In this document: in pieces, positions 1,605 through 3,911 of the stretch
How positions within the stretch are numbered: position 1 is the first letter of the stretch
Layout: each line of letters opens with the position of its first letter
Source: a virus
Lineage: Duplodnaviria > Heunggongvirae > Uroviricota > Caudoviricetes
DNA length: 5,037 bases
IMG/VR virus record: IMGVR_UViG_2548877009_000019
Reading direction: 5' to 3' (one strand)
The notes under the pieces: generated by a model
The model's input: the letters and a program-made list of their open reading frames with translations, nothing else
Database searches by the model: none
Told to the model about the DNA's origin: nothing
Made by a program: the position numbers and the translations under genes

Positions 1605-1793
1605 GTGTTAAGCACTGATCGGTTTATACGTGAAAAAGAATGCGAAAAGCTAACAGGCCTTAGCCGCTCATGCCGCTACCGCCTGGAAAAGGCCGGACAA
1701 TTCCCATCACGTCGTAAACTTGGTGGGCGTTCTGTTGGCTGGTCTTTATCTGAGGTTTTGGCCTGGAAGGATAGCTGCAAGGCAGTTCACTAA
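1605..1793 (+). CDS. alpA: AlpA-family phage regulatory protein (small DNA-binding transcriptional regulator)
   Basis: 62 codons from a GTG start at 1605, preceded by AGGGGG (1594-1599) with a 5-nt spacer. The translation contains the AlpA-type pattern (TGLSRS..YRL...G.FP...KLG.RSVGW..SEV..W). Sits immediately after int in the same orientation, as is typical. Confidence 0.85.
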   Translation: MLSTDRFIREKECEKLTGLSRSCRYRLEKAGQFPSRRKLGGRSVGWSLSEVLAWKDSCKAVH

Positions 1794-2297: not shown

Positions 2298-2402
2298 TTA
2301 TTCTTTGGGTTCAATACCGCGTTGCTGTAATTCTTTTCGGATTATTCGTTTTATCCAAGCTGCTAAAGAGTCATCACCGTCTTGTTGTTGTGCTTTTTCC
2401 AT
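2298..2402 (-). pseudogene. Possible truncated/diverged paralog (34 codons) of the 2983-3162 small basic protein
   Basis: Hand translation of the minus strand gives MEKAQQQDGDDSLAAWIKRIIRKELQQRGIEPKE. Its 3' end and the following DNA are homologous to the 3' end of the 2983-3162 gene (...CCCAAAGAATAA versus ...ACCAAAGAATCAGAATAA). The N-terminal two-thirds is missing. Confidence 0.25.
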
Positions 2403-2470
2403 CTTTTCCCGTAAGTCAGGATCTAAACGGAACTGGAAAGGAGGATTACCACGCCTTTCATTTTTGTGTG

Positions 2471-2498
2471 TTGACATGTCAATTACACCCCATATAAT
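2471..2498 (+). promoter_or_regulatory. Near-consensus sigma70 promoter (TTGACA, 16-bp spacer, TATAAT), plus strand
   Basis: TTGACA at 2471-2476 and TATAAT at 2493-2498, read directly. A perfect 12-bp palindrome GTGTATATACAC lies just downstream at 2507-2518 (candidate operator). Predicted start site near 2505. Confidence 0.6.
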
Positions 2499-2530: not shown

Positions 2531-2577
2531 TAGCACAAAAAACAACGCCCCGCAGTGATGGGAACACATACGGGGCG
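2531..2577 (-). terminator. Minus-strand intrinsic terminator for the minus-strand sORF operon; same hairpin as module copy 1
   Basis: Stem CGCCCCG / CGGGGCG (2546-2552 and 2571-2577) with 18-nt loop. On the minus strand it is followed by UUGUUUUUUGUG (complement of 2531-2545). Confidence 0.5.
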
Positions 2578-2611
2578 TCTAACCAAACCATTAATTGAGG
2601 TAACGATTATG
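2545..2611 (+). repeat. Leader module copy 1: GC-stem hairpin (18-nt loop), TCTAACCAA, Shine-Dalgarno GAGGT, ATG (2609)
   Basis: Aligns with copy 2 (3291-3356) and, in architecture, with copy 3 (3658-3725). The ORF that starts here (MAIKEHSLLFIHTQT...) matches the P2/P3 N-termini only to HTQT and then diverges, so it looks like a degenerate copy. Confidence 0.6.
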
Positions 2612-2655
2612 GCTATAAAAGAGCATAGCTTACTCTTTATACACACACAAACGCC

Positions 2656-2695
2656 CCGGAAACGGAATAATCCGTTTCATAGTTCGGTTTTGTGT
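2656..2695 (+). terminator. Weak plus-strand terminator-like hairpin ending the short transcript from the 2471-2498 promoter
   Basis: Inner stem GAAACGGA / TCCGTTTC (2659-2666 and 2671-2678, loop ATAA), outer CCG/CGG closure, then UUUUGUGU (2688-2695). The U-run is separated from the main stem by an internal loop. Confidence 0.3.
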
Positions 2696-2697
2696 AC

Positions 2698-2925
2698 TCA
2701 TCCTGGCGGGCGATTCTTACGGGACTTTAGCCGCCGTGGGCAGCTTGCTAAAAATGCCTCCAACGCGAATAGTCCAGGTTTCATTTCTATCGGTATTAGT
2801 TGGATATTCAGAGGATTAGCCAGTTCGGCTTCAAGGCGAGCACAGGTTTCTAACTGCCTTTGCCGAATGATTTCATCTTCTTGCGTCTGCGTGTCTTGTA
2901 TTGGTGATAGTGTGTTGTTGGTCAT
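2698..2925 (-). CDS. Hypothetical small protein (75 aa, starts MTN)
   Basis: Minus-strand ORF immediately downstream of the 2983-3162 gene, separated from it by the 45-bp repeat copy B. Followed on the minus strand by the 2531-2577 terminator. Paralogous start to the 2037-2240 ORF. Weak Shine-Dalgarno. Confidence 0.35.
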   Translation of the reverse strand: MTNNTLSPIQDTQTQEDEIIRQRQLETCARLEAELANPLNIQLIPIEMKPGLFALEAFLASCPRRLKSRKNRPPG

Positions 2926-2933
2926 GGTACTGC

Positions 2934-2979
2934 CCTGTAAAGCAATGCGCCGTAGTACCTCACGCCACGGCGCTGATGG
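2934..2979. repeat. 45-bp repeat, copy B, in the 57-bp spacer between the 2983-3162 and 2698-2925 minus-strand genes
   Basis: Matches copy A (2249-2293) with 2 mismatches. Forms GCGCCG-N15-CGGCGC on the minus strand. Confidence 0.8.
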
Positions 2980-2982
2980 TGA

Positions 2983-3162
2983 TTATTCTGATTCTTTGGT
3001 CTTGCGGCGCTGGCGGCGTTTGATTTCGCCGCGCATGGCTGCGTTTATAAACTGCCCCGTGCTTTCACCTTCTTCTTTCACGTTCTCCATGCCTTCAATA
3101 ATTTCATGGGCAATACGTGCAGTTACAGATTGTGATTTTGCATTCTTTGGACCCGTTGCCAT
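2983..3162 (-). CDS. Small basic protein (59 aa, MATGPKNAKSQSVTARIAHEIIEGMENVKEEGESTGQFINAAMRGEIKRRQRRKTKESE); candidate regulator
   Basis: Start placed at the internal ATG (plus 3160-3162) because it has a strong Shine-Dalgarno GAGGGG with 6-nt spacer; the longer track ORF to 3201 has none. Divergent from the plus-strand operon across an operator-like region. Lys/Arg-rich C-terminal tail. Regulatory role is inference. Confidence 0.55.
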   Translation of the reverse strand: MATGPKNAKSQSVTARIAHEIIEGMENVKEEGESTGQFINAAMRGEIKRRQRRKTKESE

Positions 3163-3182
3163 GTTTAACCCCTCATGTTTTT

Positions 3183-3264
3183 GGTGTAAGACAATATACA
3201 CGAAAAAAAAATATTTTGAAGGGTTGACGTGTAAGACACCGTTATTTTACATTGTGTCTTACAC
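3183..3264. promoter_or_regulatory. Divergent promoter/operator region with GTGT-N3-ACAC palindromic motifs
   Basis: GTGTAAGACA (3184-3193), GTGTAAGACAC (3229-3239) and its exact inverted copy GTGTCTTACAC (3254-3264). A -35-like TTGACG at 3224-3229 overlaps the second motif; the -10 is poor (TTACAT/TACATT). Confidence 0.5.
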
Positions 3265-3290
3265 CTTGTTAATGCAAGGTACAGAAAAGA

Positions 3291-3356
3291 CGAAACCCCG
3301 CAGTGCTGGAACACATACGGGCTTCTAACCAACAACGTAAACTAGGAGCCGTTATG
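3291..3356 (+). repeat. Leader module copy 2: hairpin AACCCCG / CGGGCTT (17-nt loop), CTAACCAA, Shine-Dalgarno AGGAG, ATG (3354)
   Basis: About 90% identical to copy 1 over roughly 40 bp. Outer stem positions differ from copy 1 in a way that keeps pairing (A-U pairs replacing G-C pairs) with one internal mismatch. Confidence 0.7.
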
Positions 3357-3537
3357 GTTGCTGTAAATCATATACCACACCTTGTACACACACAAACTGC
3401 CTTTGTGTGGCGTTTTCTGGCACTGAATATCGGAGAAAAAAACCAGTTGATCGCCAGTGTCGAAAATAGCTATGATTCCCGCGCACCTCATAAAACGGGT
3501 GCCGGGATTGGCGTCCTGGGCAAAACTGAAGCGCATA
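3354..3537 (+). other. P3-paralogous short ORF (MVAVNHIPHLVHTQTAFVWRF...) with no in-frame stop before the 3538-3560 terminator; leader peptide or decayed paralog
   Basis: Good Shine-Dalgarno (AGGAG). N-terminal roughly 30 codons are paralogous to the 3723-3911 ORF with several synonymous differences. The frame runs without a stop through the terminator to 3911, so the 202-aa track ORF is unlikely to be one real protein. Confidence 0.3.
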
Positions 3538-3560
3538 ACACGCGCCCCGCGTGTTTTTTT
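3538..3560 (+). terminator. Strong Rho-independent terminator (ACACGCG-CCC-CGCGTGT followed by a T-run)
   Basis: Perfect 7-bp GC-rich stem (3538-3544 and 3548-3554), 3-nt loop, T-tract through 3560. Plus-strand specific. Lies inside the 3303-3911 track ORF and upstream of the small-ORF operon. Confidence 0.75.
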
Positions 3561-3657
3561 GTGCCGCATAGTCACACCTTATCAATGGTGGGCTGTACGG
3601 GGGCGGAGCAATCCGCGCCGGTTTCTTCAGTGTCCGGTTACGCCAACCCTGTACAGT

Positions 3658-3725
3658 CCGCCACCAGCGAAATTGGCGTTTCCGGTGGCGGTTATCTTAA
3701 CCACACTGAGGAGGCTGCCAACATG
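3658..3725 (+). repeat. Leader module copy 3: hairpin CCGCCACC / GGTGGCGG (18-nt loop), TCTTAACCAC, Shine-Dalgarno GAGGAGG, ATG (3723)
   Basis: Perfect 8-bp stem at 3658-3665 and 3684-3691. Same architecture and spacing as copies 1 and 2 but with a completely different stem sequence. Confidence 0.6.
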
Positions 3726-3911
3726 GCTACTATCCCTACCCTTGTACATTCTCAAACCGCCTTTCTCTGGCGCTTTATCATCTTTGGCGCGTCAGAACAT
3801 CAAATCATCCACGTAACCGCCTGGACGGAACGCGAAGCGCGTAGCCGTTGCCCGTCAGGTTGTGTTGCTGTATTTGCCGCCCGTATTCGTCAGGAGGTGC
3901 GCCATGATTAA
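3723..3911 (+). CDS. Hypothetical small protein (62 aa, MATIPTLVHSQTAFLWRF...); first gene of the small-ORF operon
   Basis: Strong Shine-Dalgarno GAGGAGG (3708-3714) with 8-nt spacer. Stop overlaps the next start (ATGATTAA). Paralogous N-terminus to the 3354 ORF with synonymous third-position differences. Confidence 0.6.
   Translation: MATIPTLVHSQTAFLWRFIIFGASEHQIIHVTAWTEREARSRCPSGCVAVFAARIRQEVRHD

Follow-up and report, generated by a model that had tools for sequence, protein, structure and literature searches.

The window analysed here is a stretch of 5,037 nucleotides from a caudoviral record (IMG/VR IMGVR_UViG_2548877009_000019). It is the left end of a capsid-forming PICI satellite carrying int, alpA and an Icd-like gene, like Sp7/EcCIEDL933 of O157, and E. 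coli JNE120442 has a near-identical genome (99.9% identity). The original prediction, made from the sequence alone, placed three arrangements of a hairpin, a short box, a Shine-Dalgarno sequence and an ATG at 2545-2611, 3291-3356 and 3658-3725 (hereafter copies 1, 2 and 3), and all three were found there. Copies 1 and 2 sit inside a diverged tandem duplication with a spacing of 685-748 bp, whose repeats are 79% (D10) and 84% (D1) identical. The genes and promoters around the three copies are as follows.

2298..2477, minus strand: small divergent gene of module 1, with a weak YlcI/YnfO-like match (NF041551, 20 bits; cut-off 30); hypothetical in the near-identical genome
2471..2498, plus strand: consensus sigma-70 promoter of the remnant module 1 (TTGACA, 16 nt, TATAAT; 12 of 12 consensus matches)
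2609..2654, plus strand: truncated start of an Icd-like ORF (MAIKEHSLLFIHTQT), from protein alignment A1 and leader comparison
2983..3162, minus strand: small divergent gene of module 2, YlcI/YnfO family (NF041551, 64.7 bits; PGAP agrees)
3224..3253, plus strand: promoter-like site of the module 2 rightward operon (TTGACG, 18 nt, TACATT), from a promoter scan and the sequence
3229-3239 and 3254-3264: inverted repeat GTGTAAGACAC / GTGTCTTACAC, overlapping the promoter-like site, read from the sequence
3354..3722, plus strand: incomplete pseudogene, 'ash family protein' (PGAP, near-identical genome), with PF10554 at residues 40-122
3723..3911, plus strand: Icd-like gene, first of the rightward replication operon (NF033153; PGAP)

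Homology of the ORF at 2609..2654 to full-length Icd-like genes stops past CACACACAAAC. The ORF at 3354..3722 has an Icd-like N-terminus, after which its frame crosses the isrK and C4 RNA genes, as judged from PGAP, Pfam and Rfam; the Pfam 'Ash' match in the window overlies RNA genes.

Copy 3 in a C4 antisense RNA system

Copy 3 (3658-3725) belongs to a described system, that of the C4/P4-CI antisense RNA, and is the a2/b2 target of that RNA. The elements of this system, all on the plus strand, are listed below.

3483..3559, plus strand: isrK-like RNA (RF01394, 66 bits; gathering score 50)
3507-3514 and 3525-3531, plus strand: candidate a1 target ATTGGCGT and candidate b1 ACTGAAG, in the isrK-like RNA (motif positions)
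3537-3555, plus strand: intrinsic terminator of the isrK-like RNA (terminator scan)
3581..3668, plus strand: C4/P4-CI-type antisense RNA, with the b' loop at 3622-3633 and a' at 3640-3646 (RF01695, 77.6 bits; gathering score 45; E = 1.5e-14)
3658..3691, plus strand: copy 3 hairpin, whose loop presents a2 (ATTGGCGT, 3672-3679), from Rfam, folding and duplex prediction
3703..3714, plus strand: b2 target ACACUGAGGAGG, which includes the Shine-Dalgarno sequence of the Icd-like gene and is complementary, with G.U pairs, to the C4 loop UUUCUUCAGUGU

The 5' arm of the copy 3 hairpin, CCGCCACC, doubles as the 3' end of the C4 closing stem, and the gene downstream is icd-like (NF033153, 57.2 bits). Predicted duplexes had energies of -15.0 kcal/mol for a'/a2 and -26.5 kcal/mol for the b' region with 3697-3718. 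The C4 RNA and its target change together in four loci (L095, L171, L201 and L213): the a'/a2 pair reads ACGCCAA/UUGGCGU in the window, AAGGCUAA/UUAGCCUU in L171 and GUGGUAA/UUACCAC in L095 and L201, while b'/b2 shifts jointly in L201 and L213. At the isrK-like region the c4-a1b1 model (RF03163) scored 21.2 bits, under its gathering score of 46.7. Phage P4 carries the same pair of isrK and C4.

These results separate copy 3 from the other two copies, which had been taken together with it as one module. A covariance model, R1, built from 35 relatives of copies 1 and 2, gave scores of 71.4 and 60.9 bits to these copies and only 4.1 bits (E = 6.4) to copy 3. Nor is the CTAACCA-like box common to the three: the motif YCTRACCA occurs in the window only at copies 1 and 2, the box of copy 3 reads CTTAACCA, and other C4-type leaders are without the box. 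In related islands a P4-type isrK-C4-a2b2 cassette lies before icd, in the place of R1, so that either type of leader can precede icd. Pairing of the C4 RNA with the leaders of copies 1 and 2 was considered separately and set aside, since the duplexes (-10 to -18 kcal/mol) do not stand out and owe their energy to GC-rich stems.

A strand-specific hairpin at copies 1 and 2

The first two copies are diverged paralogs. They represent a structured element of E. coli phage satellites that has apparently not been described before and is here called R1; the model detected both on the minus strand.

2532..2586, minus strand: R1 copy 1, comprising the box complement UUGGUUAGA, the hairpin SL2 (2544-2579) and the tail UUGUUUUUUG (71.4 bits, E = 1.6e-15)
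3280..3332, minus strand: R1 copy 2, comprising the box complement, the hairpin SL2 (3292-3325) and the tail GUCUUUUCU (60.9 bits, E = 4.5e-13)

No Rfam 15 family matched 2532-2617, 3280-3362 or the O157 copy on either strand at E values up to 1; the earlier failure to place the element in a described family thus stands for copies 1 and 2, and falls for copy 3, which belongs to the C4 system. A description of R1 was not found in the literature by searching for the hairpin sequence, the locus tags ECs1576/ECs1577, or PICI together with antisense or sRNA.

The element is common. The copy 1 region had a blastn match in 1035 of 5426 complete E. coli genomes, about one fifth, and in the islands examined R1 was always just upstream of Icd-like genes in int-alpA islands, about 25 nt 5' of their start codons. 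In single-module islands there was no minus-strand gene to the right of R1. Only three of the phage records searched carried it, it was looked for and not found in phage P4, and a search for homologous proteins gave matches in Escherichia and Shigella only. Allele diversity was collected by retrieving leaders from IMG/VR through protein anchors; an exact loop pattern returned from viral contigs mostly chance matches and near-identical E. coli copies, and a search of genome contigs with an Icd-like alignment returned only two loci.

Several details of the hairpin as first drawn required revision. It had been described as conserved in shape and not in sequence, yet copies 1 and 2 are sequence paralogs with nearly identical loops; the supposed loop of 17-18 nt contains an inner stem; and the stem quoted for copy 2, AACCCCG/CGGGCTT, holds a C.C mismatch. 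Folded on the plus strand, copy 1 (-18.4 kcal/mol, z = -3.28, none of 200 shuffles as good) and copy 3 (-18.9 kcal/mol, z = -3.27, 1 of 200) surpassed their shuffles, whereas copy 2 was at chance (-8.1 kcal/mol, z = -0.07, 85 of 200). In the window copy 2 lacks one G (GGG at 3319-3321) present in JNE120442 and all other alleles, and its hairpin is weaker because of this 1-nt deletion (minus-strand fold of -16.2 kcal/mol versus -23.3 kcal/mol in the four-G allele).

Comparison of homologous loci showed that the pairing at copies 1 and 2 is kept and that stem changes are compensated. Among 35 alleles, 94.5% of 488 cells of the R1 helix are standard pairs on the minus strand, and 7 of the 14 pairs are altered on both sides. 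The covariation score was 0.377 versus 0.168 in shuffles, with none of 500 shuffles reaching 0.377, figures that are not probabilities, since the R1 alleles are mosaic and related to one another. Pairing dropped to 42-52% in slid-partner controls, and RNAalifold recovered the helix independently. The proposal of selection on secondary structure rather than primary sequence is thus borne out for copies 1 and 2, on the strand opposite to that proposed.

The strand is indicated by the wobble positions. All 66 wobble cells of the helix are G.U when read on the minus strand, and they involve 10 of the 14 pairs; none is G.U on the plus strand, where they would be A.C mismatches in the mRNA and only 80.9% of the cells are standard pairs. 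The minus-strand fold was the more stable in 38 of 40 R1 alleles (for example, -27.3 versus -16.3 kcal/mol; copy 1, -23.3 versus -18.4 kcal/mol), and the G+C-rich stem-loop ranged from -16 to -29 kcal/mol on this strand across the 40 alleles. That the hairpin works in the mRNA leader, on the plus strand, as a site of processing, of protein binding or of nut-like antitermination is quite improbable in our judgement: it lies between promoter and Shine-Dalgarno sequence, and the mirror hairpin can form in the mRNA at the pairing and copy 1 stability just given, but every wobble position is a mismatch there, the fold is weaker in nearly all alleles and in copy 2 no better than shuffles, and there is no U-tract on the plus strand. 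The boxB/boxA-like reading fares no better, as the boxA consensus has no match within three mismatches at any of the three boxes, and its two matches elsewhere are at chance level. Readings of the locus as a plus-strand 'leader' are therefore misleading.

The same asymmetry bears on whether the inverted repeat could be an operator in double-stranded DNA whose co-evolving half-sites would mimic covariation, bound by a dimeric regulator such as the divergent YlcI/YnfO-like protein or AlpA. Its nearness to divergent promoters and the discreteness of the hairpin alleles would suit an operator. An operator gives no reason, however, for mismatches that are solely G.T on one strand or for the one-sided, conserved bulge of the hairpin; the hairpin alleles reassort freely with upstream promoter and operator types, and the promoters have separate inverted repeats of their own. 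We regard an operator as very improbable.

Of 35 alleles, 33 have a T-rich tail beyond the minus-strand hairpin, with at least four T among the first 9 nt past the stem; L176 and L193 lack it. The last stem pairs contribute further U's. SL2 thus has a stem of 14-16 bp with one bulge, a loop of 4-7 nt and a U-rich tail on the minus strand; a simple terminator scan misses it because the loop is capped at 8 nt. The G.U asymmetry of 66 to 0 and the T-rich tail indicate that the selected structure at copies 1 and 2 is a predicted intrinsic-terminator hairpin of the minus strand, and not a plus-strand leader. Strand-specific pairing would also fit a structure in single-stranded DNA of the minus strand, for instance a signal for priming or replicating the satellite, and the islands encode primase or helicase genes. 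Such a signal would not be expected to have a T-rich tail or to cover the ribosome-binding site of an operon's first gene, and R1 persists in IS-flanked plasmid fragments with no island primase or helicase gene annotated in the stretch examined; we give it hardly any weight.

A putative antisense RNA over the icd ribosome-binding site

In leftward reading, a second structure and promoter-like hexamers lie upstream of the predicted terminator.

2580..2615, minus strand: putative SL1 of copy 1, in which the start-codon complement pairs with the box complement and the loop holds the anti-Shine-Dalgarno CCUC (folding)
2622..2650, minus strand: candidate promoter of copy 1, -10 TATGCT (2622-2627), -35 TTGTGT (2645-2650), 17-nt spacer (7 of 12 consensus matches, below the scan threshold)
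3327..3359, minus strand: putative SL1 of copy 2, in which AACCAUAACG pairs with CGUUG.UUGGUU and the loop is CUCCU (folding)
3367..3395, minus strand: candidate promoter of copy 2, -10 TATGAT (3367-3372), -35 TTGTGT (3390-3395), 17-nt spacer (8 of 12)

The loop CUCCU in copy 2 is complementary to the Shine-Dalgarno sequence AGGAG at 3344-3348. Minus-strand folds covering SL1 and SL2 reached -33.5 kcal/mol at 2533-2617 (z = -5.23, none of 200 shuffles as good) and -24.9 kcal/mol at 3283-3362 (z = -2.35). For 23 of 24 leader variants the minus-strand fold of the SL1 region was better than its plus-strand fold, and wobble cells in the SL1 core numbered 44 on the minus strand to 3 on the plus. 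Covariation in SL1 is weak, a control slid by +1 scoring as high as the structure itself, and was set aside as unconvincing stand-alone support. From these folds the conserved 'box' is better explained as an arm of a predicted second minus-strand hairpin, pairing with the complement of the start codon.

Both candidate promoters are weak, with 7-8 of 12 consensus positions, a poor -35 (TTGTGT) and no extended -10. A TAnnnT hexamer is nevertheless found at the identical offset in 58 of 58 distinct leaders, in three divergent coding contexts that are related by descent and so amount to few independent observations. Its position puts the start at the base of SL1 (near 3360 in copy 2), and no stronger conserved minus-strand promoter was found within 900 nt. 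In the predicted geometry the terminator is 25-30 nt upstream of the Shine-Dalgarno sequence and the candidate -10 lies inside codons 5-7. The R1 hairpin would then end a putative antisense RNA, some 80 nt long, that covers the ribosome-binding site of icd; the overlap of this RNA with the Shine-Dalgarno sequence and start codon holds only if the candidate promoter is real. An RNA-level regulatory role beside the ribosome-binding site, exerted through an antisense RNA, is plausible.

The top of SL2 is hypervariable. In 25 leaders whose 45 nt downstream of the hairpin agree except at one site, about 14 of some 20 columns in the hairpin top are variable (for example, GUAUGUGUUCCCAGCACUGC versus UUACUGCUCCUACAGUG), and this top could set specificity.

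A simpler account has no dedicated antisense regulatory RNA: the hairpin would serve on the minus strand only as a terminator or insulator, keeping pervasive or read-in leftward transcription from reaching the divergent promoter region and the small leftward gene. Its terminator features are solid, as against an antisense promoter of only 7-8 of 12 matches. Moreover, the minus-strand ORFs 2698-2925 and 2983-3162 lie upstream of the copy 1 element in leftward reading, so that copy 1 could also terminate a leftward operon. The table of sRNAs from Hfq crosslinking (CRAC) in O157 Sakai (Tree 2014 supplement) lists nothing in prophage Sp7 or near 1,597,4xx, which is only mild negative evidence, as a cis-antisense RNA need not bind Hfq; in that genome the R1 tail lies at about 1,597,417-1,597,423 and the predicted start of the RNA at about 1,597,505. 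Against a plain terminator, most islands are without a minus-strand gene or a strong minus-strand promoter to the right of R1, and this account leaves unexplained the hypervariable hairpin top within near-identical sequence, the minus-biased second hairpin with its anti-Shine-Dalgarno loop, and the C4 antisense cassette substituting before icd. We consider it unlikely.

The model that we favour by a modest degree is that two different antisense-RNA devices guard the ribosome-binding sites of Icd-like genes, a putative R1 RNA at copies 1 and 2 and the C4 RNA at copy 3. The DNA of copies 1 and 2 would encode a minus-strand RNA hairpin serving as a Rho-independent terminator when read leftward. 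Transcription from a weak promoter with its -10 at ATG+14 to +19 would begin about 6 nt into the Icd-like ORF and yield a cis-antisense RNA of some 80 nt, which would cross the start codon and the Shine-Dalgarno sequence and form SL1 and SL2. SL1 would present the anti-Shine-Dalgarno in its loop, with the 'CTAACCA box' as one arm of its stem, and SL2 would terminate the antisense RNA, its hypervariable top serving as a recognition loop specific to each allele. By pairing with the icd mRNA leader, the antisense RNA would prevent the replication operon's first gene from being translated, and probably also destabilise the icd mRNA or make it polar. At copy 3 the C4 RNA, encoded just upstream on the same strand, would mask the Shine-Dalgarno sequence of the second Icd-like gene.

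Related antisense systems and satellite control

Copy 3 is a member of the family of P1/P7 c4 and P4 CI (RF01695, RF03163 and RF01394): a C4-family RNA is encoded upstream on the same strand, its a' is complementary to the loop a2 and its b' to a b2 segment spanning the Shine-Dalgarno sequence, and candidate a1/b1 copies lie further upstream. Copies 1 and 2 have only the logic in common with this family, namely a (putative) RNA masking the ribosome-binding site of an icd-like first gene; neither sequence comparison nor covariance models relate them to C4 or its targets. Unlike C4, their RNA would come from the opposite strand, be fully complementary in cis and not be processed from the same transcript.

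The sar RNA of phage P22 (immI) is a short cis-antisense RNA that spans the ribosome-binding site of ant. Like the proposed R1 RNA, it is a small antisense RNA that arises in or near the start of its target, ends at an intrinsic terminator and controls the first gene of a phage regulatory operon. The two differ in that there is no sequence relationship, the R1 target is an Icd-like gene of a satellite, and the R1 RNA itself is putative. CopA of plasmid R1 and RNAI of IncB/IncI-alpha plasmids have a 5' segment and a long interrupted stem-loop that doubles as terminator; their upper stem and loop fix specificity, and alleles define compatibility groups. This specificity loop is paralleled by the hypervariable SL2 top of the R1 element, which differs in having no Rfam match, to CopA, RNAI or any other family, at E values up to 1 and in belonging to a satellite operon rather than to the leader of a rep gene. 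The likeness to lambda nut or rrn boxB-boxA is that of a hairpin beside a short conserved box in a promoter-proximal leader; the differences are that boxA is unmatched, the pairing is selected on the other strand and the box would be an arm of SL1.

Whether a global repressor exists in Gram-negative PICIs has been described as unclear (PMC6092414, a PICI paper of 2018), and the known activator of Gram-negative PICIs and capsid-forming PICIs, including O157:H7 Sp7/EcCIEDL933, is AlpA. A bolder and more tentative possibility, which we think less likely than not, is that R1 is a family of allele-specific cis-antisense 'immunity' RNAs that silence translation of the PICI and capsid-forming PICI replication operon until AlpA-driven induction, with the terminator loop defining immunity or exclusion groups. 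If this were true, R1 would correspond in function to the CI RNA of P4 and would be relevant to the question of a missing repressor in Gram-negative PICIs (PMC6092414). R1 is conserved, strand-specific, structured and common, it overlaps the ribosome-binding site of the replication operon's first gene, and related islands have a C4 cassette in its place; together these features make it a concrete, testable candidate for controlling satellite induction after transcription and, possibly, exclusion between satellites.

Gene layout of the satellite

After the integrase and AlpA-family genes, the window has small genes read leftward and then an operon read rightward, and a remnant module of the R1 element family (with hairpin copy 1), a second R1 module (with copy 2) and a C4 cassette (with copy 3) lie in series. 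The following features were assigned.

1-1230: tyrosine integrase gene, at the start of the window
1605-1793: AlpA-family gene (PF05930, 65 bits)
3483-3559, plus strand: isrK-like RNA (Rfam, 66 bits)
3581-3668, plus strand: C4 antisense RNA (Rfam, 77.6 bits)
3723-3911: Icd-like gene, first in the rightward operon (NF033153, 57 bits)

Escherichia coli JNE120442 has a 99.9% identical stretch, adjoining roxA/pepT, which runs on into RepA helicase, SSB, PerC, capsid, protease, portal and terminase genes, a gene order that is the layout of a capsid-forming PICI such as EcCIEDL933 (preprint 10.1101/2022.09.08.507074). In O157:H7, a simpler relative occupies the same site and is annotated in Sakai as prophage Sp7.

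Several further sequence elements were observed. A direct repeat of ∼21 nt (containing AACGTGACACAATCA) occurs three times between int and alpA (1275-1315 and 1525-1545); these are candidate sites that may bind integrase (arm-type) or AlpA. Some ∼140 nt beyond the downstream end of alpA, at 1941-1962, is a plus-strand hairpin that looks like a terminator (GCGGC...GCCGC followed by CTTTCTG, with an A-run in front; fold of 1925-1972, z −2.37), and O157 conserves it in its element. A Pseudomonas protein named AlpA acts on readthrough (PMC7969949); the hairpin may be relevant if the satellite AlpA, which shares that name, does so too. On the minus strand, a 75-nt block (84% conserved; 2230-2304 and 2915-2989) follows the stop of each small YlcI-like leftward gene and precedes the next leftward ORF start; it holds a GCGCCG...CGGCGC hairpin whose fold beats shuffles only marginally (z −0.53 and −1.74). 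The motif GTGTAAGACAC is found at 3183-3193, 3229-3239 and 3254-3264, and two of these copies, in inverted orientation, flank the −10 and spacer of the rightward promoter. All three resemble operators at which the divergent YlcI/YnfO-family protein could act; at this position the repeats of other islands differ, GGTAATTACC in O157 being one example. Finally, a Cys/Ser/Arg-rich open frame of 240 codons (2609-3328), which carries on from module 1's truncated Icd-like start over opposite-strand genes and is unannotated in the near-identical genome, is probably spurious.

Two kinds of hairpin

The original prediction described three copies of one leader module (2545-2611, 3291-3356 and 3658-3725), with a hairpin conserved in shape but not in sequence. 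All three hairpins are present at these places. Folded on the plus strand, copies 1 and 3 do better than shuffles (−18.4 kcal/mol, z −3.28, and −18.9 kcal/mol, z −3.27), whereas copy 2, whose quoted stem contains a C.C mismatch, does not (−8.1 kcal/mol, z −0.07; 85 of 200 shuffles equal or better). Copy 2 reads GGG at 3319-3321, versus GGGG in JNE120442 and all other alleles. This 1-nt deletion weakens its minus-strand hairpin from −23.3 to −16.2 kcal/mol. It may be genuine, or it may stem from a sequencing error in the homopolymer.

An entire module has been duplicated in tandem and has diverged (repeats D1 and D10; alignment A1), and copies 1 and 2 are sequence paralogues within this duplication. 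The module comprises a small leftward gene, divergent promoters, the hairpin and an Icd-like ORF start; for this reason 'shape but not sequence' is inapt for them. Nor do the three copies form one module: the R1 covariance model, built from relatives of copies 1 and 2, gives these 71.4 and 60.9 bits, respectively, and copy 3 only 4.1 bits.

Copy 3 belongs instead with the C4 RNA. The immunity region of phage P4 carries a matching isrK and C4 pair. The C4 loop UUUCUUCAGUGU pairs with ACACUGAGGAGG (3703-3714), the Shine-Dalgarno of the Icd-like gene (b' region duplex, −26.5 kcal/mol), and the C4 segment ACGCCAA is complementary to UUGGCGU (3672-3679), part of the copy 3 hairpin loop (duplex, −15.0 kcal/mol); putative duplicates of the C4 targets lie upstream, at 3507 and 3525. 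C4 RNA and target covary, both partners being altered jointly in relatives, and the C4 closing stem shares its 3' end with the 5' arm of the hairpin. Together, the C4 match, the pairing, the joint changes and the shared arm identify copy 3 as the a2/b2 target of a C4/CI-type RNA, an already known element. Its counterpart in the P4 literature is seqC. The nut-like role proposed for the hairpins was not upheld.

The Pfam 'Ash protein family' (PF10554) matches residues 40-122 of ORF 3354-3722, in the stretch of DNA with the isrK-like and C4 RNA genes, and one uninterrupted reading frame (3354-3911) connects the first Icd-like start with the second Icd-like gene by way of both RNA genes. The protein family may in part be an RNA locus read as protein, and the isrK-C4 cassette looks, from the sequence, to have been inserted at a conserved HTQTAF(V/L)WRF coding stretch.

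Strand and distribution of R1

IMG/VR and E. coli loci yielded 40 hairpin alleles and 58 distinct copy 1/2-type leaders, and we tested covariation on 35 alleles aligned as the minus strand. The 14-pair helix has 94.5% standard pairs, compared with 42-52% in partner-slid controls; both sides are altered in seven pairs, and RNAalifold independently gives the same helix. The covariation score (0.377 versus 0.168 in shuffles) was reached by 0 of 500 shuffles, counts that are not probabilities since the alleles are kin and mosaic. The decisive test is strand asymmetry. G.U cells number 66 on the minus strand (10 of 14 pairs) and 0 on the plus strand; in the mRNA sense these cells become A.C mismatches and standard pairs fall to 80.9%. 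In 38 of 40 alleles folding energy favours the minus strand, the margin often being 6-11 kcal/mol. The R1 structure is thus real and on the minus strand: selection on structure, as originally proposed, stands for copies 1 and 2, but the strand was wrong. A double-stranded DNA operator would not yield a one-strand wobble bias or a one-sided bulge. A T-rich tail, seen on the plus strand as the A-rich tract opening the conserved block, directly follows the minus-strand stem in 33 of 35 alleles, and this anatomy is that of a Rho-independent terminator read leftward.

The 151-nt copy 1 region has blastn matches in 1,035 of 5,426 complete E. coli genomes (core common to sampled rows, 2534-2586) and R1 occurs in ∼109 plasmid records. 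It is almost absent from phage records, absent from P4, and without a family match in Rfam on either strand (E up to 1). R1 lies between the divergent promoter region and the Icd-like start codon in every island inspected; other islands, including those of the commonest Icd-like protein cluster, lack R1 and have an isrK-C4-a2b2 cassette before icd.

Small leftward gene, promoter, R1 hairpin and Icd-like N-terminus also occur together on Klebsiella, E. coli and Salmonella resistance plasmids. In both plasmids inspected the unit is within an IS-flanked fragment, and in one it heads a WYL/BREX defence cluster.

L091, 2299-5127: plasmid locus of the R1 unit
L214, 2264-2927: plasmid locus of the R1 unit

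An AT-rich, Firmicute-like phage contig (IMG/VR 3300045988_166024; loci L022, 3512-3560, and L077) has an identical 21-nt hairpin top, CGCAGTGCTGGAACACATACG, on another lower stem (GTCG/CGAC), with an upstream A-run that is a perfect minus-strand T-run; CTAAC..ACGTAAA and then a replication-like ORF follow. This could be chance or a distant relative.

A putative antisense RNA

Single-module islands have no leftward genes right of the hairpin, and no conserved strong leftward promoter was found within 900 nt of it. The sole positionally conserved candidate is weak and inside the Icd-like ORF: a −10 (TATGAT, TATGCT or TACACT) at ATG+14 to +19 in 58 of 58 leaders, across three divergent coding contexts, with a −35 of TTGTGT or TTGATC (7-8 of 12 consensus matches). 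Transcription from it would begin ∼6 nt into the ORF, and the ∼80-nt product would be complementary to the start codon, the Shine-Dalgarno and the greater part of the 5' UTR. The putative RNA folds as two hairpins (z −5.23 for copy 1 and −2.35 for copy 2). In the first, SL1, the complement of the start-codon region would pair with UGGUU, the complement of the 'CTAACCA box' of the original prediction, and the loop would hold an anti-Shine-Dalgarno (CUCCU or CCUC); the second, SL2, would be the terminator. Of 24 leader variants, 23 give a stabler SL1 on the minus strand, and wobbles in the SL1 core are biased towards that strand by 44 to 3; the covariation of SL1 is unconvincing. The Hfq-crosslinking sRNA table of O157 Sakai holds no entries in Sp7, and no RNA at the R1 locus is described within the searchable papers.

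The chief alternative is that the hairpin is a plain insulator terminator read leftward, which would share the terminator anatomy but for which local hypervariability of the hairpin top is unexpected. Among 25 leaders whose 45 nt downstream of the hairpin agree but for one variable site, ∼14 of ∼20 hairpin-top columns vary, and some inner-stem pairs are swapped from G-C to C-G. Hairpin allele, promoter/operator type and leader type are mixed freely from one locus to the next. In plasmid copy-control RNAs and phage immunity RNAs the recognition loops show local hypervariability of this kind, and the R1 hairpin top resembles them in this respect, which hints at recognition specificity.

The best reading of copies 1 and 2 is that they form the terminator stem-loop of a candidate cis-antisense RNA, in what would be a new family from E. 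coli phage satellites. If true, the R1 antisense RNA would be a post-transcriptional brake on the first operon gene of the satellite, which is of interest because a global repressor of Gram-negative PICIs, in which AlpA is an activator, has been called unclear (PMC6092414).
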